This document shows, piece by piece, positions 6,035-57,806 of a DNA stretch of 64,000 bases. Both the position numbers and the translations under genes were made by a program. The notes below the pieces were generated by a model, which had not been told where the DNA came from, ran no database searches, and was given only the letters and a program-made list of their open reading frames with translations. Source of the DNA: an uncultured Gammaproteobacteria bacterium (GTDB taxonomy: Bacteria > Patescibacteriota > Patescibacteriia > Magasanikbacterales > GWA2-37-8); contig CAZWKA010000001.1 of NCBI GenBank assembly GCA_964634875.1, forward strand, positions 101,600-165,599. Reading direction: 5' to 3'. Position 1 is the stretch's first letter. The number at the start of each line of letters is the position of its first letter.

Positions 6035-6483
6035 TGGAAGACGAAGAGTGGAATACCAACAACCAACATAGAAATATCCCGTACCAGGTCGCGTTGTCGC
6101 TGGCTGACCTGATTTTCTTCGGCCGCTGTTTTTGCTTCACGTTCGGCAACAGCGCAATCCTTGCCGTCATAAGTTGTGGTTGCTCCAACCGGGCAAGCTA
6201 CTGGTGAGTTGTAGTAAAGGTAACTGTCGGCTTTGGTAAAAATAAAAGTTTTTAAAACAATGTTAAGGAGATCGACTGCCGAAACGACGAGCATCATGAG
6301 GGCTACAAATGAGACGAGATAGAGATAGAGGGTCTTAATGAGAGCTACTTTATTCGTCGTCGGCGTAGTGTTGTCCATACACATTTTGATTAAAAAATAA
6401 ATAAGTCCAAAAAAGATAAGGAGTACGATACTTATTCGGATACCGACAAAAGCGAGGTCGAAAATGTCTGCCTGAAGATCCAT
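6004..6483 (-). CDS. hypothetical membrane protein
   Basis: 159 aa with three or four predicted transmembrane helices and a Cys-containing extracytoplasmic loop (SPVACPVGATTTYDGKDCAVAE). Confidence 0.45.
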   Translation of the reverse strand: MDLQADIFDLAFVGIRISIVLLIFFGLIYFLIKMCMDNTTPTTNKVALIKTLYLYLVSFVALMMLVVSAVDLLNIVLKTFIFTKADSYLYYNSPVACPVGATTTYDGKDCAVAEREAKTAAEENQVSQRQRDLVRDISMLVVGIPLFVFHWKLARRKEI

Positions 6484-6545
6484 AGATAGTCTGTAATTTT
6501 TTGAGGGGAGGGGTGCGGCCGATCCCCCAATCGGCCGTAGGAAGG

Positions 6546-7310
6546 CTAGACCGCCTTAGTGAGTATGTACCCTTCGTCGTCGACCGTGACGCCGAGGGTG
6601 GCGGTTGTGTGGGTGGGCGGAGGGTCACCATTGGCAAGTCTGCCGTGGTAGCGTTGCCATTGTTCATAAAGTCGATCGGCCCAGCGCCAGAGCGTACTGA
6701 CTTCCCAGTTGTAGTTCTCGTTGCGCCGGTGATGGTCCAGATGCGGGGTGGTCACCCGAGTGACATAGCGCGCCCAGAGCGTGCCAGCTTCTGGTTTGTA
6801 GGAGCTGCAGTGCGCCAGGTAGTGCATCTCCTCTTCCCAGAGAACCCGGAGAAAGACGAAGCTGCAAATATCAGCTACAGCGACCAAGGGGAAGGCAGTG
6901 AGGGTGCCAAGGAGTGTGCCGAGCCCCGAGAGCCCGAAGACAGTGAGAAGCGCGGCAGCGAGGGGAATAAAAATCCACTCCACGCGGGCTTGCTTGCGGT
7001 GGTGAAGCCGGTGATGGCGGGCTGAGCTCGTGTCCGGCACGTTGATAACAAGGCTCCAGAGAGCAATCTTCCGGGGAAGATGATGAAGCCCGTATATGTG
7101 GGCCACCAACTCTGTCGGTGAAACGAGAGCGATGAGGGCTGCGAAGAGGGGCGCTTCCCACCACTGCAAGGATCCGAGAAGTGATCGCACGCCAATCCAA
7201 CAGAGTGCGCCCGCGAGGAGGAGGGCAGAGGTGAAGCGCAAGAACACGACGCCTTGCACCTGCAGAAAGGTCTGGGGTTTCGGGTTTTGCCGAAGCATTT
7301 TTTTCAGCAT
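6546..7310 (-). CDS. fatty acid hydroxylase / sterol desaturase-family integral membrane protein (His-box enzyme) in a GC-rich segment
   Basis: 254 aa with multiple transmembrane helices. Histidine boxes HIYGLHH, HHRLHH(R) and HLDHHRRNENYNWEV are typical of the FA_hydroxylase superfamily. Local GC is clearly higher than the flanking DNA. Confidence 0.6.
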   Translation of the reverse strand: MLKKMLRQNPKPQTFLQVQGVVFLRFTSALLLAGALCWIGVRSLLGSLQWWEAPLFAALIALVSPTELVAHIYGLHHLPRKIALWSLVINVPDTSSARHHRLHHRKQARVEWIFIPLAAALLTVFGLSGLGTLLGTLTAFPLVAVADICSFVFLRVLWEEEMHYLAHCSSYKPEAGTLWARYVTRVTTPHLDHHRRNENYNWEVSTLWRWADRLYEQWQRYHGRLANGDPPPTHTTATLGVTVDDEGYILTKAV

Positions 7311-7359
7311 GACAGCCTCCAGATAGTTTTGTTTTCTTCAACAAAAATTTTTCAAAGAA

Positions 7360-8343
7360 CTAGCGGATGCCGACCAGTTTTCGAACGTCGTTCATGGTTT
7401 TTCCGGCGACTATTCGGGCTTTTTCCGCCCCTGTTTTGAGGATAGTTTCCAATTCTTGGGGGCTGGCCAAAAGTTCGCCTCGACGAGTACGAAAATCTGC
7501 GAAATAATTGGCAACGGCTGCTGCCAATTCTTGCTTTAGGTCTCCATAACGAATGGTACCATCCCTTTCGGCTTTGGCAAGGCCTGCGTAGGTTTCTGCG
7601 TTTCCAAATTCTTTGAGGAGTAACAAGAGGTTTTGAGCGCCGGGGGCATCTGCGCCGCCTTCGGTGGCAGTAACTGCTTTTTTCAATTTTACTTCAATTT
7701 GTTTCTGGTCTTCGCACAGTTCAATAACGTGACCGGCGCCAAGCGATTTGCTCATCTTTTTTGTCGGCTCGAGCAAGCTCATGACTTTGGGGAATTCGGT
7801 CAAAAGATGTTTAGTTTCCGGGAAGTATTCACCGTAGCGTTTGTTGAACGCTCGGGCAATAACGCGAATAAGTTCGATGTGCTGGACTTGGTCTTGGCCA
7901 ACCGGAACCAATGTACCGTGGTAGAGAAGGACGTCGGCTACTTGAAGGATAGGGTAGGTAAACAGTCCGGCGTTAATATTTTTTTCCTGGCGGGCGGATT
8001 TGTCTTTGAATTGCGTCATGCGTTCGAGTTCCGCGACGGGAGTGATACAATTAAAAACCCAGGCAAGTTCGGTGTGCTCGGGAATGTGGGATTGTACAAA
8101 AAAAGTAACGCGGTCTGGGTCAATCCCCAGCGCTAAAATTTCTGCTGCCAGGGTAAGTATTTTATTGCGTCGGTCTTCGGCCGTGTCTTGTCCGGTAAGT
8201 GAGTGGTAGTCAGCAATAAAAAAATAACAATCGTATGTGCCGCTATTTTGGAGTTCGATCCAATTTTTGACCGCTCCTAAATAATTGCCAATGTGGAGGT
8301 TGCCGGTTGGTTGGATCCCAGAGAAAATAACAGGTTTGGACAT
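7360..8343 (-). CDS. trpS: tryptophanyl-tRNA synthetase
   Basis: 327 aa. Class I HIGH-type motif (SGIQPTGNLHIGNYLGA) and KMSKS. Confidence 0.95.
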   Translation of the reverse strand: MSKPVIFSGIQPTGNLHIGNYLGAVKNWIELQNSGTYDCYFFIADYHSLTGQDTAEDRRNKILTLAAEILALGIDPDRVTFFVQSHIPEHTELAWVFNCITPVAELERMTQFKDKSARQEKNINAGLFTYPILQVADVLLYHGTLVPVGQDQVQHIELIRVIARAFNKRYGEYFPETKHLLTEFPKVMSLLEPTKKMSKSLGAGHVIELCEDQKQIEVKLKKAVTATEGGADAPGAQNLLLLLKEFGNAETYAGLAKAERDGTIRYGDLKQELAAAVANYFADFRTRRGELLASPQELETILKTGAEKARIVAGKTMNDVRKLVGIR

Positions 8344-8357
8344 AACAGAAAAATAGT

Positions 8358-10132: not shown

Positions 10133-10146
10133 AAGACTTTAGTTTT

Positions 10147-17683: not shown

Positions 17684-17757
17684 CTTCTGTTTACCACGTA
17701 GGTGATCTGCAGAATGAAGTCTCGGACGTCTGGCGGGGTGCCAGACGTCCGGTGGTG

Positions 17758-18165
17758 TTATCTGAGCCGCTCAGCGCCGAAGCGCTCGCGGTGCTTCAGC
17801 TCGCTGAGCCAGCTGAAGCCGTAGAGCCCCAAGCCGACCGCGGCCAGGCCGAGGCAGGGTAGCATGAGGCGGCTTTCGAAAATGCTGCCGGCCAGCACGT
17901 TCATGAGCGTCAAAAAGCCGATCACGATCACGCACGCGAGATCGTACAGATCGAAGTGGTTCCGATCGATGCGCGTTGCCTGGGTGAGCTTCAGGCACGC
18001 GAGAAGTACGGTGCTGAGGAGCTGGACTCCCGCCAGCAACTGGAACTCCGGGGTGGTGAGGCCGCCAGTGGCAATCAGCGCCCCGATCGTGAGCGAGGCG
18101 AAAATACTGGCCTTGGCGGACGTTTCGGCTATAGTGTGCTTGAACATTGTTGTGATCCTCCCCAA
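17758..18165 (-). CDS. hypothetical four-helix membrane protein encoded in a GC-rich segment
   Basis: 135 aa with four predicted transmembrane helices. High GC3 codon usage, unlike the flanking DNA. Confidence 0.45.
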   Translation of the reverse strand: MGRITTMFKHTIAETSAKASIFASLTIGALIATGGLTTPEFQLLAGVQLLSTVLLACLKLTQATRIDRNHFDLYDLACVIVIGFLTLMNVLAGSIFESRLMLPCLGLAAVGLGLYGFSWLSELKHRERFGAERLR

Positions 18166-18592
18166 AAAATGTGGTTTTCTAGCTGAAAAGAGAGTTTTTA
18201 ACTACCTTTTTAGCTAGAAAACAAGGTAAAGAACAACGAAACACCCTAGCACATTTTGAAGGTTTTGTCAAGACTCGGTTGCGTTGTTTTAGCCAAAAAA
18301 GCTATTTAGTAGACCTGCTTAAAATTGAACACGAAATGTTGTTGACAAAAATGAAAAAAACAGGTATTGTATTAATCTTCCTGAAATTCAAATATTGAAC
18401 ACTAAGGAAGCATCGTTCATTACATTAGAGAAGAAGAGCAGAAGTTAGGCAAATTTCCTGAAACAGTCAGAGAAAAAATGTACGGTATGGGCAGAATAAT
18501 CTGTCTATACCTATTGGGTACATTGGTTTTTTATCTGTTTCAGGATTCGGCTCTCGCAAGAGCTAACGCCCGTTATCATCTGTGGAGGGACT

Positions 18593-18787
18593 TTGATGCA
18601 CAGCCAGACCAGCTATTTTGCTGATATCTTCGGGACGCGCCAGAACAACGAGCGGTTGCGGCAGCAGACCTGGAGCCAGCCTTCGTGCTGCGCCGCCTGC
18701 TGCGGGCCGTCCACCTACAAGGTGGGGCACGCGCTCCTCGGCTTGGCGCTCTCACACGCCCCGCTTCTCTTCCTTCTCTTCGCCTAG
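18593..18787 (+). CDS. candidate small Cys-rich protein with hydrophobic C-terminus (GC-rich)
   Basis: 64 aa. SD-like GGAGGG 6-8 nt upstream of the ATG. CC-x2-CC motif (SCCAACCG). High GC3. The alternative frame 18618..19052 is Arg/Pro-rich and probably spurious. Confidence 0.25.
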   Translation: MMHSQTSYFADIFGTRQNNERLRQQTWSQPSCCAACCGPSTYKVGHALLGLALSHAPLLFLLFA

Positions 18788-18987: not shown

Positions 18988-19371
18988 TCAGAACGGGCAG
19001 ACGTGCGCTGCTTGGTCAATCGTATAGATCGGGCTGCCGCCATAGCGGGTAATAAGCGGGCCGGTGATCGCCTTCCGCTCCAGCAGCTCCAGCAGTTGCA
19101 GGGTGCCATCGATGTCGATGCGGCCACCTGTGGCCACCATGATGACGAGCCCGTTGTTGAGGTGGCCGAACAATTGCCGCATCTCCTCGATAACAGCGGG
19201 CGTTCTCCGTTTTTGCTCCGAGAACATGGTAATGAGCACGAGCGTGCTGAAGCTGCCAATACCGGTGTTTTCAGGCGTCACAGTATCTCCGAGGTAAAGG
19301 GTGGTGGGGCTGCTCTGGTATCTGGTGTCTAGAATAAAAAAGCATCCCCACCGTTTTGAATACGATCTCAA
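18988..19371 (-). CDS. hypothetical protein (possible Rossmann-like fold), TTG start
   Basis: 127 aa from a TTG start. Moderate GC. Sequence LVLITMF...LVIMVATGGRIDIDG is suggestive of a nucleotide-binding fold but not diagnostic. Confidence 0.3.
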   Translation of the reverse strand: MRSYSKRWGCFFILDTRYQSSPTTLYLGDTVTPENTGIGSFSTLVLITMFSEQKRRTPAVIEEMRQLFGHLNNGLVIMVATGGRIDIDGTLQLLELLERKAITGPLITRYGGSPIYTIDQAAHVCPF

Positions 19372-19473: not shown

Positions 19474-19767
19474 ATGTCAAATCAAGCACCACAAACGCTA
19501 TCGCCTGAACTTCCCGTCCTGCTTGAGCACGCCACAGGAGTTGCGAGGGGAACTGCCCCTAACTGGCCCGTTCCTGTGTTATGGGTGGTTATGGTGGTTG
19601 CGCTTGGTGCCGCCGGGTTCCTTTTGGCAACTGGCCCGCCGGTGTGGCACGCGCACAATCCGCCTACCCACCACCCCCAGTATTGGCCGCTCTGTCTCGG
19701 GCACCCGCCAGTTATCGCGCCCCCGCCCGGACAACCAGGTCTCGTCCCCTTATCGCCCAGCCAGTAA
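19474..19767 (+). CDS. small single-pass membrane protein with Pro/His-rich tail (GC-rich)
   Basis: Start moved to ATG 19474, which has an AGGGAGA SD 6 nt upstream. Sequence MSNQAPQ...PVLWVVMVVALGAAGFLLA... The track ORF starts at 19402, before the likely promoter. Confidence 0.35.
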   Translation: MSNQAPQTLSPELPVLLEHATGVARGTAPNWPVPVLWVVMVVALGAAGFLLATGPPVWHAHNPPTHHPQYWPLCLGHPPVIAPPPGQPGLVPLSPSQ

Positions 19768-23178: not shown

Positions 23179-23307
23179 TTTTAGATCCAAGTATTACAAA
23201 CCACCCTTCTTTGGAAGGGTGGTTTTGTTTTTGGTTGAGACCTCGATTATCTTGACGAATGGGGTAAAAAGTGGTAGTAAATCGTCGATAGTGGAGGCAG
23301 GAAAACC

Positions 23308-23907: not shown

Positions 23908-24099
23908 CACCTCTGCGAAGAGGTTCTCTTTCACACCATAATTCCCGCCCACAGCCGACCTCACCGTCGGCTCAATAAAAAACCACTCAATCTCAATTGG
24001 GTGGTTTTTTATTCCTATCTTGACAAAACCCTGTTTTTCGGGTAGCGTAAAAAAGTCCCAATTGAGGCTTCAAACGATCGTCATAGGAGGTCGTCCCCC

Positions 24100-42092: not shown

Positions 42093-42464
42093 ATGAAGAG
42101 CACCTGGTTACTTCCTTTGCTTTTTGGCTTTGGCTGTAGGGCGGCGCCGCTGCCCATCTCTGATAACCCGGTGGCTGTCAGGGAGACAGTGGCGAGCTGC
42201 GAGTCGCCGCAGCGTACGTGGTCGGACTGCGCTGTGGCCTGTGTCCGCAAGGTGAATCTGGATCACGAGTACGACCCGGCGATCGACCTCTGCCGGCGAC
42301 AGCACCCCGACAACGTCAAGGGTGTGGTGGCTTGTCTCAACGACAAAGTCCCCGACTACACCGCCGCCTTCCGCGCCTGTACCAAGGACGACGGCTGCGA
42401 CAAAATCCGGGAGAACCATCCCGGCTGCTTCGGGCCTGAGGCCGTGAACCTGCCTTCGAGCTAG
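42093..42464 (+). CDS. GC-rich secreted Cys-rich protein (single copy of a ~90-aa 8-Cys module)
   Basis: 123 aa with a signal peptide. Cys spacing SCESPQRTWSDCAVACV ... CRRQ ... ACLND ... ACTKDDGCDKIRENHPGCFGPE is shared with both halves of the next ORF. High GC3. Confidence 0.55.
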   Translation: MKSTWLLPLLFGFGCRAAPLPISDNPVAVRETVASCESPQRTWSDCAVACVRKVNLDHEYDPAIDLCRRQHPDNVKGVVACLNDKVPDYTAAFRACTKDDGCDKIRENHPGCFGPEAVNLPSS

Positions 42465-42642: not shown

Positions 42643-43263
42643 ATGTGGAAATTATACACCGGATTGTTGGTGGTTGCTGCTGGCTGTACCTCGCTGGCAA
42701 ATGTTCAGCGGCTGCGACCAGATACGCCGGTTGAGCCGTGTCACGAGGTGCAAAAACGCTACGGCGATTGCAGTCTGCTGTGTGCACAAAAGGCAGATCC
42801 TACCCAAGCAACCAATGCTGTGCTCGACAGTTGTGGCGAGAAATTCAGTGAGAGCATTGATCGGATGTTGGCTTGTTACGAAGCGGAGGCTCCGGAACAA
42901 GCGGTCGCTTACCGTTCGTGCATGCAAGACAGCGGTTGCACGAACGTCCGAGAAAGTCGGGCCAGCTGTTTTGGAGAAGGTGTGCCAACAGGTATAGCTG
43001 TCCAAGGTGATGGTCGCGATTACGAATCATGCCGAGAGGTTGAGGTGGCGTACAATGCCTGTGCGCTGAGCTGTGCTGAGCGGATTGATCCCGATGGTCC
43101 GACAGCCGATTTAATAAAGCGTTGTGCACGTGAGCTACCACCGGACACCTGTTATCGCGAGGGTAGCCCAAAAGCGCCCCAGTTCATGTGGTGCCTAAAA
43201 GCGAATGGGTGTATGGTGCGCCGCACCTTGCGTCCCGAGTGCTTTGTTCCGACTGGTGAGTAG
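42643..43263 (+). CDS. GC-rich Cys-rich lipoprotein (two tandem copies of the same 8-Cys module)
   Basis: Start at ATG 42643 with SD GGAGGGA. Lipobox AAGCT. Repeat 1 is EPCHEVQKRYGDCSLLCAQ ... CGEKF ... ACYE ... CMQDSGCTNVRESRASCFGEG. Repeat 2 is ESCREVEVAYNACALSCAE ... CARE ... CYRE ... CLKANGCMVRRTLRPECFVP. Confidence 0.55.
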   Translation: MWKLYTGLLVVAAGCTSLANVQRLRPDTPVEPCHEVQKRYGDCSLLCAQKADPTQATNAVLDSCGEKFSESIDRMLACYEAEAPEQAVAYRSCMQDSGCTNVRESRASCFGEGVPTGIAVQGDGRDYESCREVEVAYNACALSCAERIDPDGPTADLIKRCARELPPDTCYREGSPKAPQFMWCLKANGCMVRRTLRPECFVPTGE

Positions 43264-43433: not shown

Positions 43434-44420
43434 TTATTCGATGTAGCGGTGGGTATCAAAGCCCTCCGGCAGTTCGATCTCATCCAGGTGGAGGAAGGCA
43501 ACTATCGCGATGCGCAGCGCATCGGGGTGAAGTTGCTTGGGCTGCGGAACCTGGACAACACCGTGGTACAAGGGCTTCAGCCGGCCGCCGGTCAAGAGGA
43601 AGGGTTTGCAGGCGTTGAAGAGAAGGGGGCGGTTCGGCTCTGAACTGATCGGTACCCACTCATACGGCTTGCAGGGGTTGAGCCCGGGCGGATGGGGTGT
43701 CGTCAGAACATGGTCCAGATGTTCGCCGCGGTCGTCATGAAGCGCTTCCAGAGCATGTCGTGGTTGCGCGCCTTGCAGACCGGGCCCGCTTTCGTAGGCC
43801 GCATAGGTGAATGCCGAGCGATCGTTATGTCTGCCACCGATTTCGCCCGTAGTATCTTTTCGACGGCCTGTATAACCGAGAATCCGTATCACATCAAAAT
43901 TGTCTCGACCCTCTCGCCCGACCAAGGGAGTCATCTGCGTGCCCAACAAATCATCAAGCTCGCGCACGATTCCACGTGCATGATCTTGAAACCGTCGGAG
44001 CAATGACTGGCAGCTGAAGAGTAACCGCCGATGTTCTCTGAGGAATTCGGGGTTGAACTGGGTCAGCTTGTCGAACAGGGGAGCGCGGAAGTGGAACGTC
44101 TTTTTGTGATCCTTCTCCCGCTCAGGATTCGTTGGATCCGGTTGGCCAACAGATTCCCAGAACCCAGTATCCCAGTCTGGGGGCTGGCCAGGCTTTGAGA
44201 TCATATTGAATGCCCAAGCTCTCGGTTCCTTGGGGGGATTGTCGATCAAGTCCAGAAAATCCCTGACGATCAACGGAATGAGGTCGTCCGTTCTGAGTTC
44301 AACGCGCGTGATTCGGTCGCGGAGAAGTTCTTGTGCGTGGGCTCGATTCCGTGCAAGGTCCATTGTCATGGGCACACTCCTTCTAACTCGCCAGTATAGC
44401 CGAGCCAAATATTTTTGCAA
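43434..44420 (-). CDS. 2-oxoglutarate/Fe(II)-dependent oxygenase-like protein (IPNS/ACCO-type HxD...H)
   Basis: 328 aa. HNDRSAFTYAAYESGPGLQ resembles the HxD ... GLQV strand. YEWVPISSEPNRPLLFNA ... LYHGVV resembles WxxVxPxPxxxVVNxGD ... HRV. Moderately GC-rich. Confidence 0.45.
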   Translation of the reverse strand: MQKYLARLYWRVRRSVPMTMDLARNRAHAQELLRDRITRVELRTDDLIPLIVRDFLDLIDNPPKEPRAWAFNMISKPGQPPDWDTGFWESVGQPDPTNPEREKDHKKTFHFRAPLFDKLTQFNPEFLREHRRLLFSCQSLLRRFQDHARGIVRELDDLLGTQMTPLVGREGRDNFDVIRILGYTGRRKDTTGEIGGRHNDRSAFTYAAYESGPGLQGAQPRHALEALHDDRGEHLDHVLTTPHPPGLNPCKPYEWVPISSEPNRPLLFNACKPFLLTGGRLKPLYHGVVQVPQPKQLHPDALRIAIVAFLHLDEIELPEGFDTHRYIE

Positions 44421-44574: not shown

Positions 44575-45123
44575 CTACTCGCATCCCCACGACGTGTCGC
44601 CTTGCCACCCGGCGAAGCGGGTGTCGTCCGTGTCGCCCCGCACCTCCTGGGTGGGCGGCTCCTTCGGCTCGTTGCAGGTGAAGCGGCATTCGGCCTCAAT
44701 GTGCACATCCGGCTTCGTGAACATGTGCATGTCGCGCCGCTCACCAGTCTTCTTGTTGACGGCGACGGCGCTCGAAATCATCTGGGGGTGGGTAGTGAGC
44801 TTGTAGGCGGTCGCGCCCTCGCAGAACGGGATCGGATTCGGGTTGCAGAGGGCGTAGAAGGTTCCTGCTGGCGATCGTGAGATCTCGAGGATGTAGACCT
44901 TCTGATCCTTGTTCGGGGCGGGCGGCACATTGCAGGCGAAGCTCTTGCCGCCGTCATTGTTCGCTAGCACCACCTCCGGCTCAGAAGACCCCTCCAGGAA
45001 GGCTGAGTTCGTAGTATCGAGTGGGTGCTCCGTCGCCACGACTGCTTCTCGCTGCAAGACCGGCGCGGCGCATGCGCCCGCCATCAACGCTGACACTGCC
45101 ATCCAATTACGCATGCTGGTCAT
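44575..45123 (-). CDS. GC-rich secreted Cys-containing hypothetical protein
   Basis: 182 aa. Signal peptide MTSMRNWMAVSALMAGACAAPVLQ. Six further Cys. A minus-strand CTATCTTGACA motif lies upstream at about 45188-45201. Confidence 0.5.
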   Translation of the reverse strand: MTSMRNWMAVSALMAGACAAPVLQREAVVATEHPLDTTNSAFLEGSSEPEVVLANNDGGKSFACNVPPAPNKDQKVYILEISRSPAGTFYALCNPNPIPFCEGATAYKLTTHPQMISSAVAVNKKTGERRDMHMFTKPDVHIEAECRFTCNEPKEPPTQEVRGDTDDTRFAGWQGDTSWGCE

Positions 45124-46631: not shown

Positions 46632-46890
46632 AATTGATAAGCAAAAAAATCCCTCTAAAAAAGGGATTTTTTTGCTTAGTATAGCCAAAAAAACACGTGG
46701 ATAACTAGGGGCGAGTCTATCTTGACAACAGTCCGGTTTTGTGCTAGGGTCAGTAGTACTCGATTTTGAGTATAGCTTTTTGAAAAATAAGGCCTTGAGG
46801 ATGGGTACGAGCTTATTTAGCTATAAATAGGCTGCTATCCCGCCTCGAGACCTTCAACGTTCCAGTCTATCAACGTTCCAGTCCATAGGA

Positions 46891-47934
46891 GTGCAAGTCA
46901 TGAAGAACTCTCGTTTCCCGAACGTCCTCGTCCTCGCCCTGGGGCTGCTCGCCCTGGGTGCGAACTCGGCCAGCGCCGAGGAGCACTTCACTGGCCCCTA
47001 CCAGGACGTCACGCGCGCCGTCGTGCCCGACAAGCCCGCCGCCCCCAACTACAAGGAGATGGGCGAGAGCCTGTCGTCCTGCACGCCGCTCTACGGCGAC
47101 GCCGAGTGCCGCAAGCGCCTCGGCCTGCCCGCCTCGGCCGCCCCCGTCCCCGCCGCGCCGTCCGCCACCCAGAAGCCCACCGCCCCCGGCACCAAGGTCG
47201 TGAACAACAACCGCGTCGTCGCCGGCGGCAGCAAGTCCGTCGGCTCGGCGGCCCGCGCCACGGGCCTCAGCGAGGCCATCAGCGGCCGCGGGATCTTGGG
47301 CAGGGGCGGCAAGTACTTCGGGTTCGGCATCTACGTGCCCATCACCATGCTCCGCGGCTACGATGGCTTCGACGCCCGCCAGGCGCCGGTGCTCGGCGGC
47401 CTCGGACTCATCCTGCGCGGCGAGATGTTCAGCATGCTCGGCCTGCCCATCGGCTGGCAGATCTACGGCGGCTGGGAGAAGGGGTCAGTGCTGACGGTGC
47501 GCCAGGTCGACCTCGCCAAGGGCGAGATCAACGAGGCCTCCGGCGGCAACAACGCCGACCATCTCACCATCGGTGCTGCCCCGACCATCGGCCTGGGCCC
47601 GTTCAAGGCCTTCCTCGGCTACGCCTACCGCTACCGCCTCTCCAGCGCGACCGGCCCCAGCGATGACAAGCTCGTCGTCGTTCCCTCGGCGTCCGGGCAC
47701 GCCTTCGAGATCGGTGGCCGTGCTGACCTGTTCGGCGGCAGCGTCTCCATCTCCGCCCTGGTCGTGCCGGGCTGGGGGGAGACCTTCTACCCCGACTCCA
47801 AGGATCACCCCGGCGCGCTGAAGCTCAACCTGCCGAGCCTCGGCGACCGCATGTTCCCGGGCAAAGCGGGAGATCTCGTCCAGACGAACGAGAGGCTGAT
47901 CCTCCTCCAGCTCAGGATCGCCTTCTTCGGCTAG
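46891..47934 (+). CDS. very GC-rich secreted Ala/Pro/Gly-rich protein
   Basis: 347 aa. Signal peptide MKNSRFPNVLVLALGLLALGANSASA. PAAPxAT linker, Gly-rich C-terminal domain. GC3 is near-saturated. Upstream CTATCTTGACA + 17 + TAGGGT (46714-46750). Confidence 0.55.
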   Translation: MQVMKNSRFPNVLVLALGLLALGANSASAEEHFTGPYQDVTRAVVPDKPAAPNYKEMGESLSSCTPLYGDAECRKRLGLPASAAPVPAAPSATQKPTAPGTKVVNNNRVVAGGSKSVGSAARATGLSEAISGRGILGRGGKYFGFGIYVPITMLRGYDGFDARQAPVLGGLGLILRGEMFSMLGLPIGWQIYGGWEKGSVLTVRQVDLAKGEINEASGGNNADHLTIGAAPTIGLGPFKAFLGYAYRYRLSSATGPSDDKLVVVPSASGHAFEIGGRADLFGGSVSISALVVPGWGETFYPDSKDHPGALKLNLPSLGDRMFPGKAGDLVQTNERLILLQLRIAFFG

Positions 47935-48070: not shown

Positions 48071-48101
48071 GCCTGTCACCAATTGGTGGACAGGCTTTTT
48101 T
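48071..48101 (+). terminator. intrinsic terminator
   Basis: GCCTGTCACC AATT GGTGGACAGGC followed by TTTTTTA. Confidence 0.55.
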
Positions 48102-48184: not shown

Positions 48185-48829
48185 ATGTACTTTGTCAGAC
48201 GTTGTGCTCGTTTTCTCGTGGTCGCTGTGGCTCTGGTTCCGTTGTTTAGTATTGCGGGTTGTAACTTCCTGCGCTGGAACAGCGGAGGGAGCCAAGGGGA
48301 CAAGCCGACCGGGAGCGACACGGTTGGTAGCAGCGGCTGTGAAGGCCGTGAGTTCTGTGATGACACCACCGGCGACACAGAGGCCCAGGCAGCCTGTAAA
48401 GCCTACCGCACGTGTCTTGCAGTAACAGCTGTCGACGATCCGATGGGCTTGGGTGTGACCAAAAGCCCTGGGATTTCTGAGCCTGCTGGTACTGCCGCGG
48501 GTGCCAATTGCAATGCGGTTAAAGAGTGTCCCAAAAGTCCGACAGGCAACCACGTGTTCCGGCCAGACGATCCGCCTGAGTTTACCTATGAGGTAGACGA
48601 TGACGGTAGTTGCACCAGGACCAAGATGTTCCACTGCATCTATTGTGGTACTACCTACTCACATGCCGCGCCTCCTGAGCAGGTCACCTTGTCGGACATG
48701 CTGCGCGACCATGAGGCGGCTCTGCGACAGCAGAGCCCTGCAGCAGGGCATATCGCTTCGGTCATGCAGACTGCTGAGATGGTCGCCCGGCGACTGAAGT
48801 TGCCTGGGGTTTGTTCGCCAAGCCGCTAG
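48185..48829 (+). CDS. GC-rich lipoprotein, paralog pair 1 member a
   Basis: ATG 48185 follows SD AAAGGGG. Lipobox IAGCN. Shares CEGREFCDDT, AACKAYRTCLAVTAVDDP, CNAVKECPKSPTGNHVF and CIYCGTTY with 48957-49703. Confidence 0.6.
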   Translation: MYFVRRCARFLVVAVALVPLFSIAGCNFLRWNSGGSQGDKPTGSDTVGSSGCEGREFCDDTTGDTEAQAACKAYRTCLAVTAVDDPMGLGVTKSPGISEPAGTAAGANCNAVKECPKSPTGNHVFRPDDPPEFTYEVDDDGSCTRTKMFHCIYCGTTYSHAAPPEQVTLSDMLRDHEAALRQQSPAAGHIASVMQTAEMVARRLKLPGVCSPSR

Positions 48830-48956: not shown

Positions 48957-49703
48957 ATGATTCGAAGACACTCGCGTTACTTCGACCGTTGCGCGCCAGG
49001 CGTCCTTGGTTTGGCACTTGTCCTTTTTGGCGGTTGCAACTTTATCGGCAAGCTCGGAGGCGCCTCCGGAGACAAAGGGGGTGCCGAAGCGCCGGCTGCG
49101 AATCTGCGCTGTGAGGGACGGGAGTTCTGCGACGACACCAGCACCGACCCCGAAGCGCGCGACGCCGCGAAAGCCGCGTGTGAAGCGTACCAGAAGTGTC
49201 TTGCTACTGTTGCCGTTGACGATCCACAGAACTTGGGTGCGGCAATGAACCGTGGTGGTTCATTAGGTTCAGGGCCTGCTGATGAGGCTCGGTGTGATGC
49301 GGTTCAAGAATGTCCGCATAGTCCAACTGGTAATCATATCTTCAAGGGTGAAACGCCGCCCAAGTACATGTATACCGTCGACAAAGATGGCGCCTGCTGG
49401 AAGCAGGAAAAGATGGATTGCTCCGTGTGCGGCACGACCTACTGTGGCTATGCGCCGAAAATCAAAATCGGCCACAACGAGCTCCGACGTTCTCGCGCGG
49501 AAGCCTTCCAGAAAAGCAATGATGCCAACGCCGCCTACCAGCGAGCAATGGCGGATGGTGTGACTGGGGACGCCTTATTCGCGTTCCAGTGGACGGCTGA
49601 GGTTGCACGGCAGTACTACACCGTTTTATTCGGCGCTTACGACACCGCCGAGACGTTTGCGATTGATCACGACAAGCCGTTTCCCTGTGCACCCATGGAG
49701 TAG
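48957..49703 (+). CDS. GC-rich lipoprotein, paralog pair 1 member b
   Basis: ATG 48957 follows SD GGAGGGA. Lipobox LFGGCN. CEGREFCDDT, AACEAYQKCLATVAVDDP, CDAVQECPHSPTGNHIF and CSVCGTTYCGY are conserved with 48185-48829. Confidence 0.6.
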   Translation: MIRRHSRYFDRCAPGVLGLALVLFGGCNFIGKLGGASGDKGGAEAPAANLRCEGREFCDDTSTDPEARDAAKAACEAYQKCLATVAVDDPQNLGAAMNRGGSLGSGPADEARCDAVQECPHSPTGNHIFKGETPPKYMYTVDKDGACWKQEKMDCSVCGTTYCGYAPKIKIGHNELRRSRAEAFQKSNDANAAYQRAMADGVTGDALFAFQWTAEVARQYYTVLFGAYDTAETFAIDHDKPFPCAPME

Positions 49704-49866: not shown

Positions 49867-50499
49867 ATGCCTATTCGTTCTTCAGCTTTGCTCTTCACGA
49901 TGCTGCTGGCAGGCTGTACCTGGTTGACCCAGAAGAATCCACAGCTGGAAGGCCAGTCCAACGGGTTGACCGGCCTGGTGGCTGGCGCCATTGCCGATAC
50001 CTTGATTGAAGGCCTGTCGCCATCGTGTACAGACACCGGAGCTTGCCAGGAAGATCCGAACGGGCAGCTGTGCAAGGAGTATCGCCAGTGTTTGCAGGCA
50101 GAGATTGACGGCTCGAAAACCGGTTTGGCTGCTGGCCCCATGCGCGGCGGCCGTCGCCGGGGCAAAGTTGCAGCGATCACTCCCGAAGGCGAAGCTTGTG
50201 ATACCGACACGTCCTGCCCGCATACCATGTTCAAACCCGGCACGCGAACGGTTAAAGTTTGGGTCGAGCCGCGCATACTTGGTAGTGGCGGAACCTATGG
50301 CCGGTGCTGGCAACAGGTTACGGCTATCTGCGCTGCGTGCGATCAGCCCGTTGGCTCCCCGCCAACTCCGGCTTCGGTTGAAGAAATCAAGAAGCTCAGC
50401 CAGATCATGTTTCCGGGTGACATCTGGAACGAAATTTTTATGGCGATGGTCAACCAAGGGGGTTGTTGGGACGAGCCCTGGGTTCCGGCTTTCCAGTAG
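49867..50499 (+). CDS. GC-rich lipoprotein, paralog pair 2 member a
   Basis: ATG 49867 follows SD GAGGTG. Lipobox LLAGCT. LIEGLSPSCTDTGACQEDPNGQLCKEYRQCLQAEIDG is paralogous to the N-terminus of the next ORF. Confidence 0.6.
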   Translation: MPIRSSALLFTMLLAGCTWLTQKNPQLEGQSNGLTGLVAGAIADTLIEGLSPSCTDTGACQEDPNGQLCKEYRQCLQAEIDGSKTGLAAGPMRGGRRRGKVAAITPEGEACDTDTSCPHTMFKPGTRTVKVWVEPRILGSGGTYGRCWQQVTAICAACDQPVGSPPTPASVEEIKKLSQIMFPGDIWNEIFMAMVNQGGCWDEPWVPAFQ

Positions 50500-50609: not shown

Positions 50610-51164
50610 ATGGTCAAAGTAGGAGTATGTTACAAGCCCACACTTGTCTTGATGTTGTTGTTGGGTGGTTGTAAGTGGTTAGTTACTCCAACAAATCCCG
50701 AGCTTGCCAATGCTGGCGGGGGTAGTTTTGGAGGCTTTGTTGGCGGTTTGATTGAAAAAGGTTTGCAGCCAACCTGTCAGCGACCCGAATCTTGCGATAG
50801 CGACCCTGATAGCCAAGAGTGCCGTGACTACCGCCAGTGCGTGGTGGATGAAATCAGGAATGGCGGTGGTTCTGCTGAGTCGTCGGGTAGTGGGGGATCA
50901 GATCCCGCTGCTCCCGGAGCTGCCTGTGGCACCGATGTCACGGACTCCCCGCCAGAAGACGAAGCGGAGGAGAAGGAAAAGGCTCGCTGTCCGGTTTGCG
51001 GAGGTCCGATGAAGCGTAAGTCGCGACCGATGGTCGTAGACTTTGGTGCAAATCCCTACCGCATGTGGCAGTACCAGTGCACGAACCGAGGTGTTTCGCG
51101 CGGCGGGCAGTTCGGTCACGGCGACTTTTCCGGTCGACGCTGGCCGCTCAAGCCCGCCGAGTAG
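50610..51164 (+). CDS. GC-rich lipoprotein, paralog pair 2 member b, with C4 zinc-ribbon-like motif
   Basis: SD GAGGTG. Lipobox LLGGCK. LIEKGLQPTCQRPESCDSDPDSQECRDYRQCVVDEIRNG. CPVCGG ... CTNRG. Followed by a hairpin at 51192-51221. Confidence 0.6.
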   Translation: MVKVGVCYKPTLVLMLLLGGCKWLVTPTNPELANAGGGSFGGFVGGLIEKGLQPTCQRPESCDSDPDSQECRDYRQCVVDEIRNGGGSAESSGSGGSDPAAPGAACGTDVTDSPPEDEAEEKEKARCPVCGGPMKRKSRPMVVDFGANPYRMWQYQCTNRGVSRGGQFGHGDFSGRRWPLKPAE

Positions 51165-51392: not shown

Positions 51393-51908
51393 ATGAAGCG
51401 ACGACTTTTGGGTTCTGTTGTCATGTTTTTAGCTTGTGTGACAGGTTGTGCTGCGTCATCGAGCTATCAGTCAGAGCCTGCTTCAACAGGTGTTGAGCCA
51501 ACTAATCCCCATCCCGCCTATTGGGGCCAGCTCCAGGCAGGGTTGGTTGATACAGGTCCGGTGCTGGTTGATCGAAGCTGTGACGACGCGGACGTAGTTG
51601 GTGCTGCGTCTGCGGCCAGCGACGAGGAGATCCCAGCGTGTGTCCACCCGCTCGCCCAGAATCCATGTCTCGTTGATAGTGAGGAGCAGTCGTATCAGCC
51701 TGACCCGGTTGGGGTTGGTGGTGAGGGCCGTTTCTTCGCCGGCCAGCGCTATGCGCTTGTTTTTGAGGTAAGCAAGGCGGTTGGCTGCCGGGCATCGTTG
51801 CGCTGGCTTTGTGGTACAAGTCGGGTTCTGCGGTGGACCAAGGTGGCGCGAGATCGCCTGCCACCCGAGCTCAATGAGTTGGCTACCCACATCGGCGCCT
51901 GCCAGTAG
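51393..51908 (+). CDS. GC-rich lipoprotein (fifth gene of the array)
   Basis: ATG 51393 follows SD AGGAGA. Lipobox VTGCA. Upstream CTATCTTGACG + 17 + TACCAC (51313-51346). Six further Cys. Confidence 0.55.
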   Translation: MKRRLLGSVVMFLACVTGCAASSSYQSEPASTGVEPTNPHPAYWGQLQAGLVDTGPVLVDRSCDDADVVGAASAASDEEIPACVHPLAQNPCLVDSEEQSYQPDPVGVGGEGRFFAGQRYALVFEVSKAVGCRASLRWLCGTSRVLRWTKVARDRLPPELNELATHIGACQ

Positions 51909-54265: not shown

Positions 54266-54276
54266 TTTTTAATGAT

Positions 54277-54326
54277 AAAATCCTAATGTCAAATGTCCAA
54301 TCATTTGGAATTTGACATTAGGATTT
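54277..54326. repeat. solo copy of the cassette inverted-repeat pair (AAAATCCTAATGTCAAATGTCCAA / TTGGAATTTGACATTAGGATTT) with no ORF between the arms
   Basis: The arms are 20 of 24 identical to those bracketing the four-helix-bundle ORF at 40317-40766. Here they are separated by only about 4 nt. Confidence 0.6.
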
Positions 54327-56752: not shown

Positions 56753-56853
56753 GGTATGGTCATAAGTTAGTAAGTAGTAAGTTTATAAGTATTTTAAAAC
56801 TTTTAAAATTACTGCTTACGGCTAGTACGTTACCTTAGCATTCTAGAGAGGTC

Positions 56854-57111
56854 TTGACAAGAAGCGAAAAATGTGCTATACTGTACTTGTGATACTAAGT
56901 TCAAAACTTTAGCGCCAACACACCACCTTTGTTAGTAATAACAGAGGTGATGCTGTTTTTAAGGGCTTTTTAGGCCTAAAAGCTTGCTTTTTAAACAGTT
57001 TTGTGCTAGACTGGCTTTCGTAGGCTCTCTACAGGGCCTTAGTATCACCATTGGCATCAAGGTTTTCCTTAGAGGCCTACTAAAAAATCCCTGGTAACAG
57101 GGATTTTTTAG
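56854..57111 (+). ncRNA. candidate structured ncRNA (6S-like closing stem) from a consensus promoter to an intrinsic terminator
   Basis: TTGACA (56854-56859) + 17 + TATACT (56877-56882). GTGATACTAAG (56889-56899) is perfectly complementary to CTTAGTATCAC (57038-57048), closing a ~140-nt internally structured region. Terminator AAAAAATCCCTGGTAACAGGGATTTTTTA (57083-57111). No ORF. Confidence 0.4.
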
Positions 57112-57225
57112 TTTGTATTTTTTTCTTCAGAGAAGTACCGAAATTATTTCAGTTATTCATTTGAAGGGCCGGACGCTTGGGGAAGCGTCGCGGCCGGGTA
57201 GTTCCTGGGTGCAGGAACTGGGGGG

Positions 57226-57756
57226 CTAGTGGGGCTTGAGGGCAAGGTTCTGGGTGGCCGGCACCCGTCCCTCGCGGCCGTAGAAGTCGGGGCGCTCCTG
57301 GTCGCCGTAGCGGCGGCGCACGGGCATGTCGACGGGGGCGTGGTCACACTCCCGGGCCGGCGGCGTCTTGCGCGGGGTCTGGGGCGGCGGGGTGTCGAAG
57401 ACGACCTTGCCGTTCTCAATGCGGAAGTGGTACTGGGCCTGGCCGTGATAGGCGAAGAAGTGCCGCCCATCCGGGATCATGCGTGCCGTCGCCACACGCT
57501 GCGCCTTGTTGAGCGCGAGCTGGTGGGTGTGGCAGAGGCTGGACTCCTCACACGGCGTGCCATCCGACCAGATGCCGGGGCAGCGCTCGGGCGTCGCCTC
57601 GTCGTTGGCGAGGCGGACGAAGCGCCCGCCATCGTCCATCTTCACTATGTACCAGTGACCCTGGAACCAGAACCGCTTGCCGGCCCGGAAGTTGAGGCTG
57701 CGGGCGTGCCGGAAGGCAAGGTCGATGTCAGGCTGACTGTGGGGCTTGACGAGCAT
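57226..57756 (-). CDS. GC-rich hypothetical protein (no signal peptide)
   Basis: 176 aa with high GC3. Cys/His-containing (CPGIWSDGTPCEESSLCHTHQ). No match to a known motif. Confidence 0.4.
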   Translation of the reverse strand: MLVKPHSQPDIDLAFRHARSLNFRAGKRFWFQGHWYIVKMDDGGRFVRLANDEATPERCPGIWSDGTPCEESSLCHTHQLALNKAQRVATARMIPDGRHFFAYHGQAQYHFRIENGKVVFDTPPPQTPRKTPPARECDHAPVDMPVRRRYGDQERPDFYGREGRVPATQNLALKPH

Positions 57757-57806
57757 GGGAATCCTCCTCAGTGTACGTGGGTGCTGGCCCTGGGGAACCA
57801 GCTTGA

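Follow-up and report, generated by a model that had tools for sequence, protein, structure and literature searches.

The window analysed here, a stretch of 64,000 nt, has a housekeeping backbone that on sequence grounds is that of Candidatus Magasanikbacteria (Patescibacteria/CPR), and the relatives of its asnS are Magasanikbacteria MAGs. Gene order along this backbone (rplO-secY-adk-map-ruvX-recO-asnS-metallophosphatase-parA-parB-relA/spoT-topA) is kept in relatives. Eight stretches of 55-70% GC had been described in an earlier note, and both windowed GC and the GC of individual ORFs bear the observation out. In 150-bp windows GC reaches 55% or more at 6451-7325, 17676-18175, 18551-19850, 23301-25025, 42026-45200, 46826-52000 and 57126-57850, which are the same as the eight segments of the note, in which 46880-47990 and 48180-51910 were split. 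The 19 ORFs of these islands, A to H, have a GC of 0.55-0.70 and a GC3 of 0.52-0.94, as against 0.34-0.52 and 0.28-0.58 for 58 backbone ORFs, with no overlap in GC between the two sets (Mann-Whitney p=8e-11). The GC steps at island edges are sharp. Junctions that measure 30-320 bp in many relatives extend over 3.4 kb (E), 5.4 kb (F+G) and 1.25 kb (H) in the window.

Island A holds a 254-aa membrane protein (6546..7310, minus strand; GC 0.59, GC3 0.69) that resembles the fatty-acid hydroxylase superfamily. The His-box call made for this gene holds, as there are three His boxes with histidines invariant against the sister orthologue, and its match to Pfam FA_hydroxylase (E=9.5e-6, 26.5 bits) falls under the 31-bit cut-off. 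B encodes a 129-aa protein with three transmembrane segments (17758..18147, minus; GC 0.62, GC3 0.84), with a promoter of the form TCTTGACA-N-TGTGCTAGGGT at 18243..18273 (minus) and a GC-rich hairpin immediately 3' (17723..17751, minus; -25.5 kcal/mol, z=-7.3). Island C comprises C0, a 63-aa Cys-rich protein with a hydrophobic segment at its C-terminus, read from a frame plot (18596..18787, plus; GC3 0.86); C1, an ORF of up to 127 aa from a GC phase plot, with an uncertain start codon (18988..19371, minus; GC3 0.71); and C2, a Pro-rich protein of 97 aa with a single membrane segment (19474..19767, plus; GC 0.62). In island D a promoter with TATCTTGAC (23248..23290, plus) precedes D1, a 199-aa lipoprotein with an LSGC lipobox and a CPxC...CDxCG pattern (23308..23907, plus; GC 0.60, GC3 0.69). 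The 94-aa protein D2 (24100..24384, plus; GC 0.60) has its promoter at 24015..24048 (plus), and the 52-aa ORF D3 (24676..24834, plus; GC3 0.94) has its own promoter, TTGACA...GTGCTAGGGT, with the -10 element at 24608-24617 (plus); both genes are also called in the Logan contig L086.

Island E contains E1, a 123-aa Cys-rich probable lipoprotein (42093..42464, plus; GC 0.62, GC3 0.78), and E2, a 206-aa lipoprotein with the E1 domain in two copies (42643..43263, plus; GC 0.55), E1 giving two blastp matches to E2 (E=1.7e-15 and 1.9e-5); hairpin/terminator analysis places terminators at 42494-42518 and 43293-43316 respectively (both plus). E3 is a cytoplasmic protein of the 2OG-Fe(II) oxygenase superfamily (43434..44369, minus; GC 0.57, GC3 0.63), a call made previously and supported by an HxD...H...R motif invariant in the family alignment, a profile match to PDB 3oox (E=4e-12) and the detection of PF03171 in two of four family members. 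E4, a 182-aa probable lipoprotein with the motif MAGAC (44575..45123, minus; GC 0.63, GC3 0.81), has its promoter, TATCTTGACA, at 45196-45204 (minus). F is a 344-aa secreted protein with a signal peptide and an all-beta C-terminal half (46900..47934, plus; GC 0.70, GC3 0.94), for which the structural model is poor (pLDDT 41); its promoter, CTATCTTGACA-N-TGTGCTAGGGT, lies at 46717..46750 (plus) and an intrinsic terminator flanked by A and T tracts follows at 48071..48101 (plus; -23.7 kcal/mol, z=-6.8). Four Cys-rich lipoproteins, G1 (214 aa; 48185..48829; GC 0.58), G2 (248 aa; 48957..49703; GC 0.57; 42% identity with G1), G3 (210 aa; 49867..50499; GC 0.58) and G4 (184 aa; 50610..51164; GC 0.57), all on the plus strand, are followed by a hairpin at 51192-51221 and by G5, a 171-aa lipoprotein (51393..51908, plus; GC 0.59) with its promoter at 51313-51346 (plus). 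H is a 176-aa protein (57226..57756, minus; GC 0.69, GC3 0.90) with a promoter at 57933-57905 (minus) and a perfect 25-bp hairpin (57806..57862, minus; -42.8 kcal/mol, z=-11.4) between promoter and ribosome-binding site.

The suggestion that the islands encode almost only exported proteins applies to 14 of the 19 ORFs and fails for C1, D2, D3, E3 and H, which have no export signal. A, B, C0 and C2 are membrane proteins. A strict lipobox test was passed by 7/19 island ORFs and 0/58 backbone ORFs (Fisher p=2e-5); two further likely lipoproteins are E1 and E4. Cys-rich lipoproteins form the tandem paralogue families G1-G4, E1/E2 and D1.

Near-saturated GC3 is seen in about seven ORFs (F 0.94, D3 0.94, H 0.90, C0 0.86, B 0.84, E4 0.81 and E1 0.78) and not in the rest, for example G1-G5, the largest block, where GC3 is 0.56-0.64 and much of the excess resides in codon position 2, i.e. 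in amino-acid composition. The description of the backbone as AT-rich was not borne out, since its GC is ~47% and its third positions are balanced (T 0.30, C 0.27, A 0.23, G 0.20). Among island genes a GC3 of up to 0.94 goes with GC1 > GC2 < GC3, the classic pattern of a genome of ~70% GC. In dinucleotide signature the islands differ strongly from the backbone (delta* 0.116 vs 0.011), which is what an ultimately foreign origin would predict. The GC excess peaks inside ORFs and declines within 100-200 nt beyond them; non-coding spacers have a GC of 0.45 within islands and 0.39 in the backbone (p=2e-5).

The cassettes, each of one short ORF with, in most, a strong ribosome-binding site and, in many, a hairpin or terminator at the end, are placed at operon boundaries within the strongly syntenic backbone. 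Most have their own near-consensus sigma-70-type promoter with an extended -35, TCTTGACA, and often the -10 TGTGCTAGGGT. That a promoter motif is common to the GC-rich genes is borne out by counts: TATCTTGAC occurs five times against 0.44 expected, always upstream of island genes, and three of the four occurrences of GTGCTAGGGT are island promoters. Such strong consensus promoters suggest high expression, and because the promoter is shared the cassette genes are plausibly a co-regulated surface repertoire. The four hairpins at which islands were thought to end are all stable (z -5 to -11), but that at 57807-57861 is within the 5' leader of H and not at an island end. Neither mobility genes nor tRNAs nor direct repeats were found around the islands, and the window contains no integrase or transposase gene and no recombination sites; dprA is present.

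Large protein databases (5.8e9 and 1.84e9 proteins, Actinobacteria included) were queried with A, E3 and F, and neither set held homologues of these outside sister CPR genomes or fragments, to which the relatives of A and E3 are limited. Among the 1.84e9 representative proteins the sole genuine homologue of F is P0006; two weaker matches in that set were rejected as repeat proteins. P0006 is located directly downstream of asnS in GCA_023246715.1 (L085), a sister Magasanikbacteria genome that groups with the window in an NJ tree of five proteins, a grouping without support. It is followed there by three D1 homologues and one G homologue, and these genes have a GC of 0.62-0.68 on a backbone of ~0.50. 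The D1 homologues are paralogues (28-37% identity, GC 0.62-0.66) and the D1-family loci differ between the window and L085; a G2 homologue lies at 13644-14384 of L085. Orthologues of A occur between trpS and a DUF5671 gene in GCA_964510495.1 (L082) and in the Logan contig L087 (GC 0.59, GC3 0.71-0.72), and orthologues of B downstream of uvrD in L087 (81% aa identity, GC3 0.84) and L082 (45%, GC3 0.80). A C0 homologue with 45% identity is found at 133-327 of L082, where A, B and C0 are collinear; A and B are so in L087 too, and the orthologues of all three have a GC of 0.57-0.61 on a backbone of 0.45-0.47. Homologues of E3 adjoin asnS in L003 (GC 0.60 vs 0.46) and L020, with a fragment in L083. 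Seven families (A, B, C0, D1, E3, F and G), all syntenic save D1, recur as GC-rich genes in sister genomes. No homologue of H was found, and none of C1, C2, D2, D3, E1/E2, E4, G5 or H among the fetched loci of relatives; these genes may be recent imports. At the same junctions in other relatives there are comparable unique ORFs, GC-rich themselves but with AT-rich sequence upstream, a few with TCTTGACA promoters.

Between the genomes compared, backbone pS ranges from 0.62 to 0.79 and identity at 4-fold sites is at or close to chance, being 0.27-0.39 for L085 against 0.24-0.30 expected, and 0.31-0.49 for L082 and L087 (the chance value being computed for the L085 comparison only). Across orthologues the 4-fold GC is 0.95/0.92 for F, 0.91/0.85/0.91 for B and 0.79/0.68/0.73 for A, and 0.39-0.72 for backbone genes. 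Since backbone synonymous sites are saturated while the orthologues are still GC-rich, the excess is maintained and is not an unameliorated relic, and its retention at the same sites means that a recent donor cannot have left this composition behind. The high G+C is inherited and maintained in this class of cassettes. Atypical composition in them does not mean recent transfer. The cassettes are best read as a long-lived, lineage-specific gene class and not as fresh imports from a high-GC host.

The account that we favour, with a little better than even confidence, sees in the GC-rich stretches of this Candidatus Magasanikbacteria chromosome a pool of small accessory gene cassettes that is restricted to the lineage. 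Our leading guess for the maintenance of the excess is that GC-biased gene conversion, or an equivalent bias towards GC, accompanies frequent recombination or exchange of the cassettes. In bacteria, differences in GC3 linked to recombination are reportedly far smaller than the +0.4 of F and H. Protein-level divergence is much faster in cassettes than in the backbone, and diversifying or relaxed selection on surface proteins would give such rapid amino-acid change. Cassettes duplicate locally in tandem, their content differs from one genome to its relatives, and at least one of them, B, appears to have swapped alleles between lineages. The comparative data support the proposal of a distinct class of surface genes under a different compositional regime, which may or may not be one of selection.

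B gives signs of possible exchange. The window and L087 copies share 81% identity with a pS of 0.20 where the flanking uvrD has 0.68, and the L082 copy is 45% identical to both, even though L082 is the closer relative of L087, with which it forms an identity mosaic of 66-98%. The block of higher identity, 600 nt long, coincides with terminator, ORF and promoter, and allele exchange of B between lineages is possible. Compared with flanking genes, A and B have a dS lower by a factor of 3-4; from the dS comparison a uniform GC-favouring force giving a GC3 of 0.7-0.9 was calculated to cause only a modest drop in dS, and the three- to four-fold reduction may reflect recent transfer between lineages. 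The incongruent phylogeny of B, the low dS, the differing D1-family loci, an additional unrelated GC-rich gene between uvrD and B in L082, the variable cassette content at the same junctions among related genomes and the foreign-like dinucleotide signature would also fit an alternative that we consider unlikely, in which an unsampled GC-rich reservoir circulating in the CPR clade (a plasmid-like or viral element, or GC-rich relatives) keeps replacing cassettes at the same junctions, whose composition would then mirror the reservoir and not a chromosomal bias. Against it, viral contigs (IMG/VR), phage/plasmid records, PHROGs and NCBIfam yielded no relatives of island genes, the window has none of the integration functions sought, the tree of A is congruent with the backbone, and F and P0006 share 36% identity, a divergence exceeding that of any backbone gene, so they have no recent common source.

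Distinctly improbable is the view that selection on coding sequence or mRNA (codon choice, transcript stability or structure, avoidance of AT-targeting nucleases) keeps synonymous GC high. The concentration of the excess within ORFs, its persistence in orthologues, the low synonymous divergence where measurable and promoters suggestive of high expression agree with it, as does a relative enrichment of G<->C changes in islands (13/47 vs 71/599), although the latter is weak evidence because it is confounded by base composition. However, island spacers are GC-elevated too, and the genes usually most highly expressed show no GC3 bias (tuf 0.41, fusA 0.44, ribosomal proteins about 0.36-0.57), so GC-ending codons are not translationally preferred here.

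That a high-GC donor, for instance an actinobacterial host, repeatedly and fairly recently supplied genes for exported proteins, with GC still unameliorated, corresponds to the first reading of the earlier note and now appears very unlikely. In its favour are the GC3 of up to 0.94 with its high-GC positional pattern, the dinucleotide signature, the status of the segments as insertions relative to many relatives and the lack of homologues in fetched loci for H, E4, E1/E2 and several small ORFs. Against it, F, A and E3 have no homologues outside sister CPR genomes in the two large protein sets, and seven families are GC-rich in sisters, mostly at the same sites, over saturated synonymous divergence. 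The islands also share promoters, similar ones precede GC-rich ORFs in relatives, and the surroundings lack mobility genes, tRNAs and direct repeats. An actinobacterial host is documented for Saccharibacteria; to our knowledge none is for Magasanikbacteria. An assembly or binning chimera, with reads of a high-GC organism stitched into a CPR contig, was already disfavoured and, despite the sharp GC steps and a metagenome-assembled contig, is now excluded for practical purposes: every island returns to syntenic backbone, with backbone genes in the relatives' order on both sides of all eight segments (16 false joins would be needed), an independent assembler recovers two junctions (in run SRR12762304 the Logan contigs L001 and L086 span asnS-F with 0 mismatches and fusA-D1-D2-D3), homologous GC-rich genes stand at these sites in sister genomes from other samples, and the island genes use promoters common to one another.

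The lineage-restricted pool favoured here can be compared with several known systems. The Vsp/Vlp-type families of mycoplasmas are tandem variable surface lipoproteins of host-associated, wall-reduced bacteria, and the cassettes resemble them in that paralogous lipoprotein genes stand in tandem, diverge rapidly and have promoters of their own, and in a presumed surface role in a small-genome, probably host-dependent bacterium. Unlike them, the cassette proteins are Cys-rich with CxxC pairs, and no phase-variation machinery (invertible promoters, homopolymer tracts, site-specific recombinase) was seen in the window; we know of no striking GC excess in such systems. Integron gene cassettes are likewise short, diverse single-ORF units of mostly unknown function, some followed by an inverted repeat, but those of the window lack intI and attC-type sites, are dispersed over many junctions and not arrayed, and mostly have their own promoter. 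For bacterial genes, Lassalle et al. 2015 (PMC4450053) treat GC enrichment associated with recombination (GC-biased gene conversion) and describe a similarly higher GC, mostly at third codon positions, in exchanging genes, which optimal codons do not account for; core genes are concerned there and accessory cassettes here. Cassette GC3 exceeds that of the backbone by 0.1 to 0.45. Regions acquired by horizontal transfer are on record for Patescibacteria (PMC12455944), and genomic islets or accessory hot spots share with the cassettes their insertion between conserved operons, content that differs at the same junctions among related genomes, atypical composition and mostly genes of unknown function. 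The cassettes differ in being free of mobility genes, tRNA targets and flanking repeats, in being GC-rich and not, as is commoner, AT-rich, and in the presence of the same families at the same sites in sisters over saturated synonymous divergence. Among 31 relatives the median GC of unique ORFs is not above that of conserved ORFs; high-GC outliers make up 23/186 unique and 3/473 conserved ORFs, and low-GC outliers among the unique ORFs are about as many as the high ones.

The whole window has a GC content of 48.4%. Scanning in 150-bp windows at a threshold of ≥55% GC delimited GC-rich stretches at 6451-7325, 17676-18175, 18551-19850, 23301-25025, 42026-45200, 46826-52000 and 57126-57850, so that the eight GC-rich segments listed in an earlier note on this DNA were essentially found again. 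Frame-specific GC plots, together with inspection of the ORFs, resolved these islands into 19 ORFs (A, B, C0-C2, D1-D3, E1-E4, F, G1-G5 and H) that make up 16% of the window (10.2 kb), and their GC content (0.55-0.70, n=19) does not overlap that of the backbone or housekeeping ORFs (0.34-0.52, n=58; p=8e-11). The GC at third codon positions (GC3), described in the earlier note as near saturation, is so in F (0.94), D3 (0.94), H (0.90), C0 (0.86), B (0.84), E4 (0.81) and E1 (0.78), but is about 0.7 in A, C1 and D1 and only 0.52-0.64 in the G cluster, E2, E3, D2 and C2, where codon position 2 carries a large share of the GC excess. Nor is the backbone AT-rich, as had been stated, its actual GC content being about 47% with balanced third positions. 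Compared with backbone proteins, those of the islands have 5 times the Cys, 2 times the Trp and 1.8 times the Pro, with Lys and Ile halved. The dinucleotide signature of the islands is also atypical (delta* 0.116 against 0.011), and together with the composition this is what is expected of a genomic island. A gene at 2637-3752 that was absent from the earlier list, encoding a 371-aa secreted protein with internal repeats of ~60 nt at 3354-3504, is a milder instance of the same trend (GC mildly raised to 0.51, and 0.54 at second codon positions).

The earlier assignment of the backbone to the CPR is right, since the relatives of its asnS are MAGs of Candidatus Magasanikbacteria, with amino-acid identities of up to 81%. 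The gene order rplO-secY-adk-map-ruvX-recO-asnS-metallophosphatase-parA-parB-relA/spoT-topA is kept in relatives, in which the junctions holding islands in the window are short. From recO to asnS there are 80-320 bp in loci L002, L006, L007 and L009 against 3.4 kb in the window (island E), from asnS to the phosphatase 30-80 bp in L004, L006, L007, L008 and L015 against 5.4 kb (F+G), and from relA/spoT to topA 75-130 bp in L002, L003, L006 and L008 against 1.25 kb (H). E, F+G and H are missing from many of the more distant relatives. Other relatives have unrelated inserts at these junctions, several well above their own backbone GC (e.g. L002 11454-11846, 0.57 against 0.41), and the GC-rich inserts of relatives have AT-rich upstream regions, a few with TCTTGACA promoters. 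By their medians over 31 relatives unique ORFs are no richer in GC than conserved ones, and there is only a surplus of high-GC outliers, which numbered 23 of 186 among the unique ORFs and 3 of 473 among the conserved. A rough neighbour-joining tree of five backbone proteins placed the window beside L085 (GCA_023246715.1), then L003/L006, which fits vertical descent combined with losses. The secY-adk junction, 270 bp in the window, is a further recurrent cassette site, with GC-rich inserts in several relatives (L085 3793-4461; L016 5229-6527; L002 6676-6966) that reach 72% GC in L085.

Homologues of the island genes were few. A word-indexed search of 5.8e9 proteins with F returned only F itself, and a full HMMER search of 1.84e9 representatives gave P0006 (36-37% identity, E=1e-32) as the single genuine homologue, two weaker matches being dismissed as repeat proteins. 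P0006 is encoded in L085, in the context L6-L18-S5-L15-secY-...-adk-map-ruvX-recO-asnS, and downstream of asnS there lie a GC-rich lipoprotein gene, the F homologue, three D1 homologues (a different locus from that of D1 in the window), a G1/G2 homologue and another lipoprotein gene, with GC of 0.62-0.68 and GC3 of 0.73-0.89 against a backbone of about 0.50. The sole relative of A found in the search of 5.8e9 proteins, at 76% identity, is in L082 (GCA_964510495.1), between trpS and a DUF5671 gene, precisely the position it has in the window, and B and C0 have collinear homologues (45% identity each) downstream of uvrD in the same genome. All three have a GC of 0.57-0.59 against a backbone of 0.45, and in a third genome, represented by the Logan contig L087, A and B have a GC of 0.59 and 0.61. 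Homologues of E3 adjoin asnS in L003 (GC 0.60 against 0.46) and L020, and one on a Logan fragment has a GC of 0.59 with 0.43 upstream. Eight ORFs had no known relative in the loci compared.

The GC excess peaks on the ORFs and drops to 0.35-0.5 within 100-200 nt, and the spacers that lie within islands or along their edges are also raised (0.45-0.46 against 0.39 in backbone spacers, p=2e-5). Most island ORFs are preceded by a near-consensus promoter-like site and a GGAGG-type ribosome-binding site, and followed by a hairpin. The promoter motif said to be shared by the GC-rich genes was recovered as TATCTTGAC, found five times against 0.44 expected, each copy lying in front of an island gene (D1, D2, E4, F and G5), and TCTTGACA-N-TGTGCTAGGGT lies upstream of B, D3 and F. 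The four hairpins at which segments had been described as ending are all stable, but that at 57806-57862 sits in the 5' leader of H, as a perfect 25-bp stem (-42.8 kcal/mol) between promoter and ribosome-binding site, and may serve in regulation or processing or be left over from an insertion event. An AGCCGAC...GTCGGCT core is common to the terminator stems of E1 (42494-42518) and E2 (43293-43316) and recurs upstream of D2 in the D1-D2 spacer, at about 24060, which suggests that cassettes were duplicated along with their flanks. In L087 a public gene call, 1433-1885 on the reverse strand, is antisense to the B orthologue at 1451-1840 on the forward strand, and the product of H (57226-57756) as read here is missing from the protein collection. 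Cassettes of this GC-rich kind are prone to annotation on the wrong strand or in the wrong frame, and gene callers can choose antisense ORFs in them.

Between the window and L082, L087 or L085 the synonymous divergence (pS) of backbone genes is 0.62-0.79 and identity at 4-fold sites is at or near chance, so each synonymous site has turned over at least once. The GC at 4-fold sites has nevertheless stayed high in the cassettes compared across genomes (F 0.95/0.92; B 0.91/0.85/0.91; A 0.79/0.68/0.73; D1 0.70-0.83) against 0.39-0.72 in backbone genes. Retaining an excess of +0.2 to +0.4 after at least one substitution per site would, under simple amelioration, need an impossible offset at the time of the split. 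We infer that the island composition cannot be the decaying relic of a donor and is either actively upheld or continually renewed.

There are also signs of exchange between lineages. B of the window and of L087 are 81% identical with a pS of 0.20, whereas the pS of the adjacent uvrD is 0.68, and B of L082 is 45% identical to both although the L082 backbone is closer to that of L087. An extra GC-rich gene stands beside B in L082. The block of higher identity (84-95%) around B comprises terminator, ORF and promoter and is bounded by a spacer of 44% identity. For A, L082 and L087 differ by a pS of 0.26, with neighbours at 0.55-0.65. A uniform force favouring GC that gave a GC3 of 0.7-0.9 was estimated to lower dS by only about 15-50%, and the three- to four-fold lower values of A and B go beyond this, implying a more recent shared ancestry of the cassettes; the comparison points to recombination of A and B between lineages. 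The mosaic identity between L082 and L087 (66-98% per 100 nt over L082 7600-11300), which takes in backbone genes too, likewise suggests ongoing homologous recombination among these lineages. A dprA gene is present in the window at 61192-62277. G<->C changes made up 13 of 47 synonymous differences in A+B against 71 of 599 in the backbone, a comparison confounded by base composition.

These sequence comparisons support the view that the islands are a lineage-restricted, fast-evolving pool of envelope-gene cassettes in which GC-richness is a persistent class property. As its cause a recombination-linked GC bias is favoured, because it would unite the signals of exchange, the extent of the excess over ORF plus flanks, the raised spacers and the unbiased composition of tuf, fusA and ribosomal-protein genes. 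The incongruence of B alleles, the mosaic identity and the GC-elevated spacers are indirect signs in the direction of GC-biased gene conversion, a phenomenon documented in bacteria, in core genes as there described (PMC4450053). That exchangeable envelope cassettes of Magasanikbacteria are the specific and lasting target of some GC-enriching process, be it strong biased gene conversion tied to cassette exchange or a targeted bias of repair or mutagenesis, is put forward tentatively and may well prove wrong. Such a process would keep GC3 at 0.7-0.94, where the genomes as a whole have 45-50% GC, for longer than synonymous sites take to saturate. If it exists, accessory genes can stand far above core GC without a foreign origin, and calls of horizontal gene transfer (HGT) based on composition would be systematically misleading for such cassettes in CPR genomes.

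A live alternative to recombination-linked bias is that an unsampled GC-rich reservoir within the clade supplies the cassettes, and another is that selection on the cassette transcripts upholds their GC. Translational selection for GC3 was rejected, as tuf, fusA and ribosomal-protein genes have no GC3 excess. An ultimately foreign but ancient origin may apply to some families, in favour of which are the distance of the island dinucleotide signature from that of the backbone and the eight ORFs without a known relative. A classical recent HGT island is not supported; of its hallmarks only the atypical composition was seen. In the word-indexed search of 5.8e9 proteins A, E3 and F had no homologue beyond sister Magasanikbacteria-type genomes or fragments, and none in a donor lineage; homologues of A, B, C0, E3, F and G occupy the same sites in L082, L087, L085 or L003 and are GC-rich there; and no integrase or transposase, edge tRNA or flanking repeats were found. 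The earlier suggestion of a high-GC donor, plausibly an actinobacterial host, is not supported either, since in these protein sets A, E3 and F lack homologues outside sister CPR genomes and the GC excess is maintained. A phage or plasmid origin found no match in PHROGs (10 island proteins), in phage and plasmid records searched with H by tblastn, or in IMG/VR scanned with the D1, F and E3 families and with H; scans of JGI metagenomes with the D1 and A families were also negative. Integrons are defined by intI, attI and an attC at the 3' end of each cassette, with promoterless cassettes in a single array. An integron array was discarded because there is no integrase (no mobility gene or domain was present in the ORFs scanned), the cassettes are spread over at least seven junctions and most have their own promoter; in contrast to integron cassettes, the island hairpins are simple terminators or, in one case, a 5' leader stem. 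A tRNA-targeted island or transposon was discarded as well, the island edges being without tRNA genes (the only two in the window are at 4886 and 53240) and without long or shared flanking repeats or repeat families. Assembly chimerism, already disfavoured in the earlier note, is in practice ruled out because every island is bracketed by backbone genes in conserved order, the asnS-F junction is matched with 0 mismatches over 2854 nt in an independently assembled Logan contig of run SRR12762304, a second contig of that run reproduces the fusA-D1-D2-D3 stretch, and genomes from other samples have homologous GC-rich genes at the same sites.

With regard to gene products, a strict lipobox rule (an N-terminal signal peptide ending in [LVI][ASTVI][GAS]C) was passed by seven island ORFs (D1, E2 and G1-G5) and by none of the 58 backbone ORFs (p=2e-5). 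These seven are predicted lipoproteins, i.e. substrates of Lgt and LspA, neither of which is encoded in the 64-kb window; E1 and E4 pass a relaxed rule and are likely lipoproteins too. The E1 domain occurs twice in E2, and G1-G2-G3-G4 are a tandem family of 25-42% identity. Membrane segments were found in A, B, C0 and C2 and a predicted cleavable signal peptide in F, and no export signal was detected in C1, D2, D3, E3 or H. E3 belongs to the 2OG-Fe(II) oxygenase superfamily: H182, D184, H270 and R287 (HxD...H...R, the iron triad and distal Arg) are invariant in the family alignment, the family profile matches PDB 3oox (E=4e-12) and many other 2OG oxygenases, and PF03171 was found in two of four family members, the window copy alone falling below detection. 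A is a candidate for the fatty acid hydroxylase / membrane di-iron superfamily: it scores 26.5 bits against PF04116 (FA_hydroxylase), below the 31-bit cut-off, has four hydrophobic windows, and shares with its orthologue every histidine of three His boxes (H71/H76/H77, H99/H100/H103/H104 and H190/H193/H194). The remaining island proteins had no Pfam, NCBIfam or PHROGs match (10 island proteins each for the latter two). The structural models of F (46900-47934; pLDDT 41) and G2 (pLDDT 53) were too poor in confidence for a fold assignment. In the C-terminal half of F (residues 140-343) the model has eight long antiparallel strands, the C-terminus has an aromatic-rich motif, and the best Foldseek matches in the PDB were all small 8-stranded outer-membrane barrels (Ail, OmpA, NspA and OmpX), although weak (E about 2e-3, TM ≤0.5). 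An OmpA/OmpX-like beta-barrel in this protein, which has no Pfam or NCBIfam match, is thus only a lead; the Magasanikbacteria lineage is thought to lack an outer membrane, and such a barrel, if real, would be odd there.

In bacteria the core genes are usually less AT-rich than accessory and recently transferred ones, and recent transfer is the routine reading of an atypical composition. In this CPR genome the accessory envelope genes lie 10-25 GC points above the core and, to judge from the sister genomes, the excess is inherited and maintained, which calls for caution over composition-based HGT calls and accounts of host-derived genes in CPR genomes. Genomic islands and HGT have been reported in Patescibacteria (PMC12455944), and a literature search turned up no description of GC-rich lipoprotein cassettes there. 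Nearest in concept are islets of variable content at conserved junctions and, among small-genome bacteria, tandem families of variable lipoproteins; what is new is the large, inherited GC excess, and its presence in accessory rather than core genes. The cassettes also provide a concrete lineage-specific surface set that looks co-regulated (Cys-rich lipoproteins, small membrane proteins and a beta-rich secreted protein), whose members are natural candidates for contact with a host or the environment in an uncultured group. With public reads and at least three sister genomes they form a natural test system for whether recombination-linked bias or selection is able to produce very large local differences in bacterial GC.

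Several other elements were seen in the window. A gene of the 23S rRNA-intervening-sequence protein family (PF05635; 127 aa, GC 0.34) at 40313-40765, including its flanking 36-nt inverted repeats (40313-40348 and 40730-40765), is an insertion absent between map and ruvX in relatives and is opposite in compositional sign to the GC-rich cassettes; a related 30-nt copy, together with a palindrome, lies upstream of parB at 54271-54326. The stretch 56852-57112 has a near-consensus promoter, TCTTGACA-N17-TGTGCTATACT, and behind it about 230 nt without an ORF, closed by an intrinsic terminator at 57079-57112. The promoter and first ~130 nt are conserved in L009 at the same position (17032 onward), and the stretch, which has no Rfam match, may be a small RNA. 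Inverted 50-nt copies of 90% identity in two unrelated intergenic regions, at 10144-10193 and 36618-36667, are a dispersed repeat element. Finally, nearly identical hairpin repeats of the GTAAACAGTAAGCAG type, at 20433-20512 and 21008-21090, stand behind both rpsL and rpsG.
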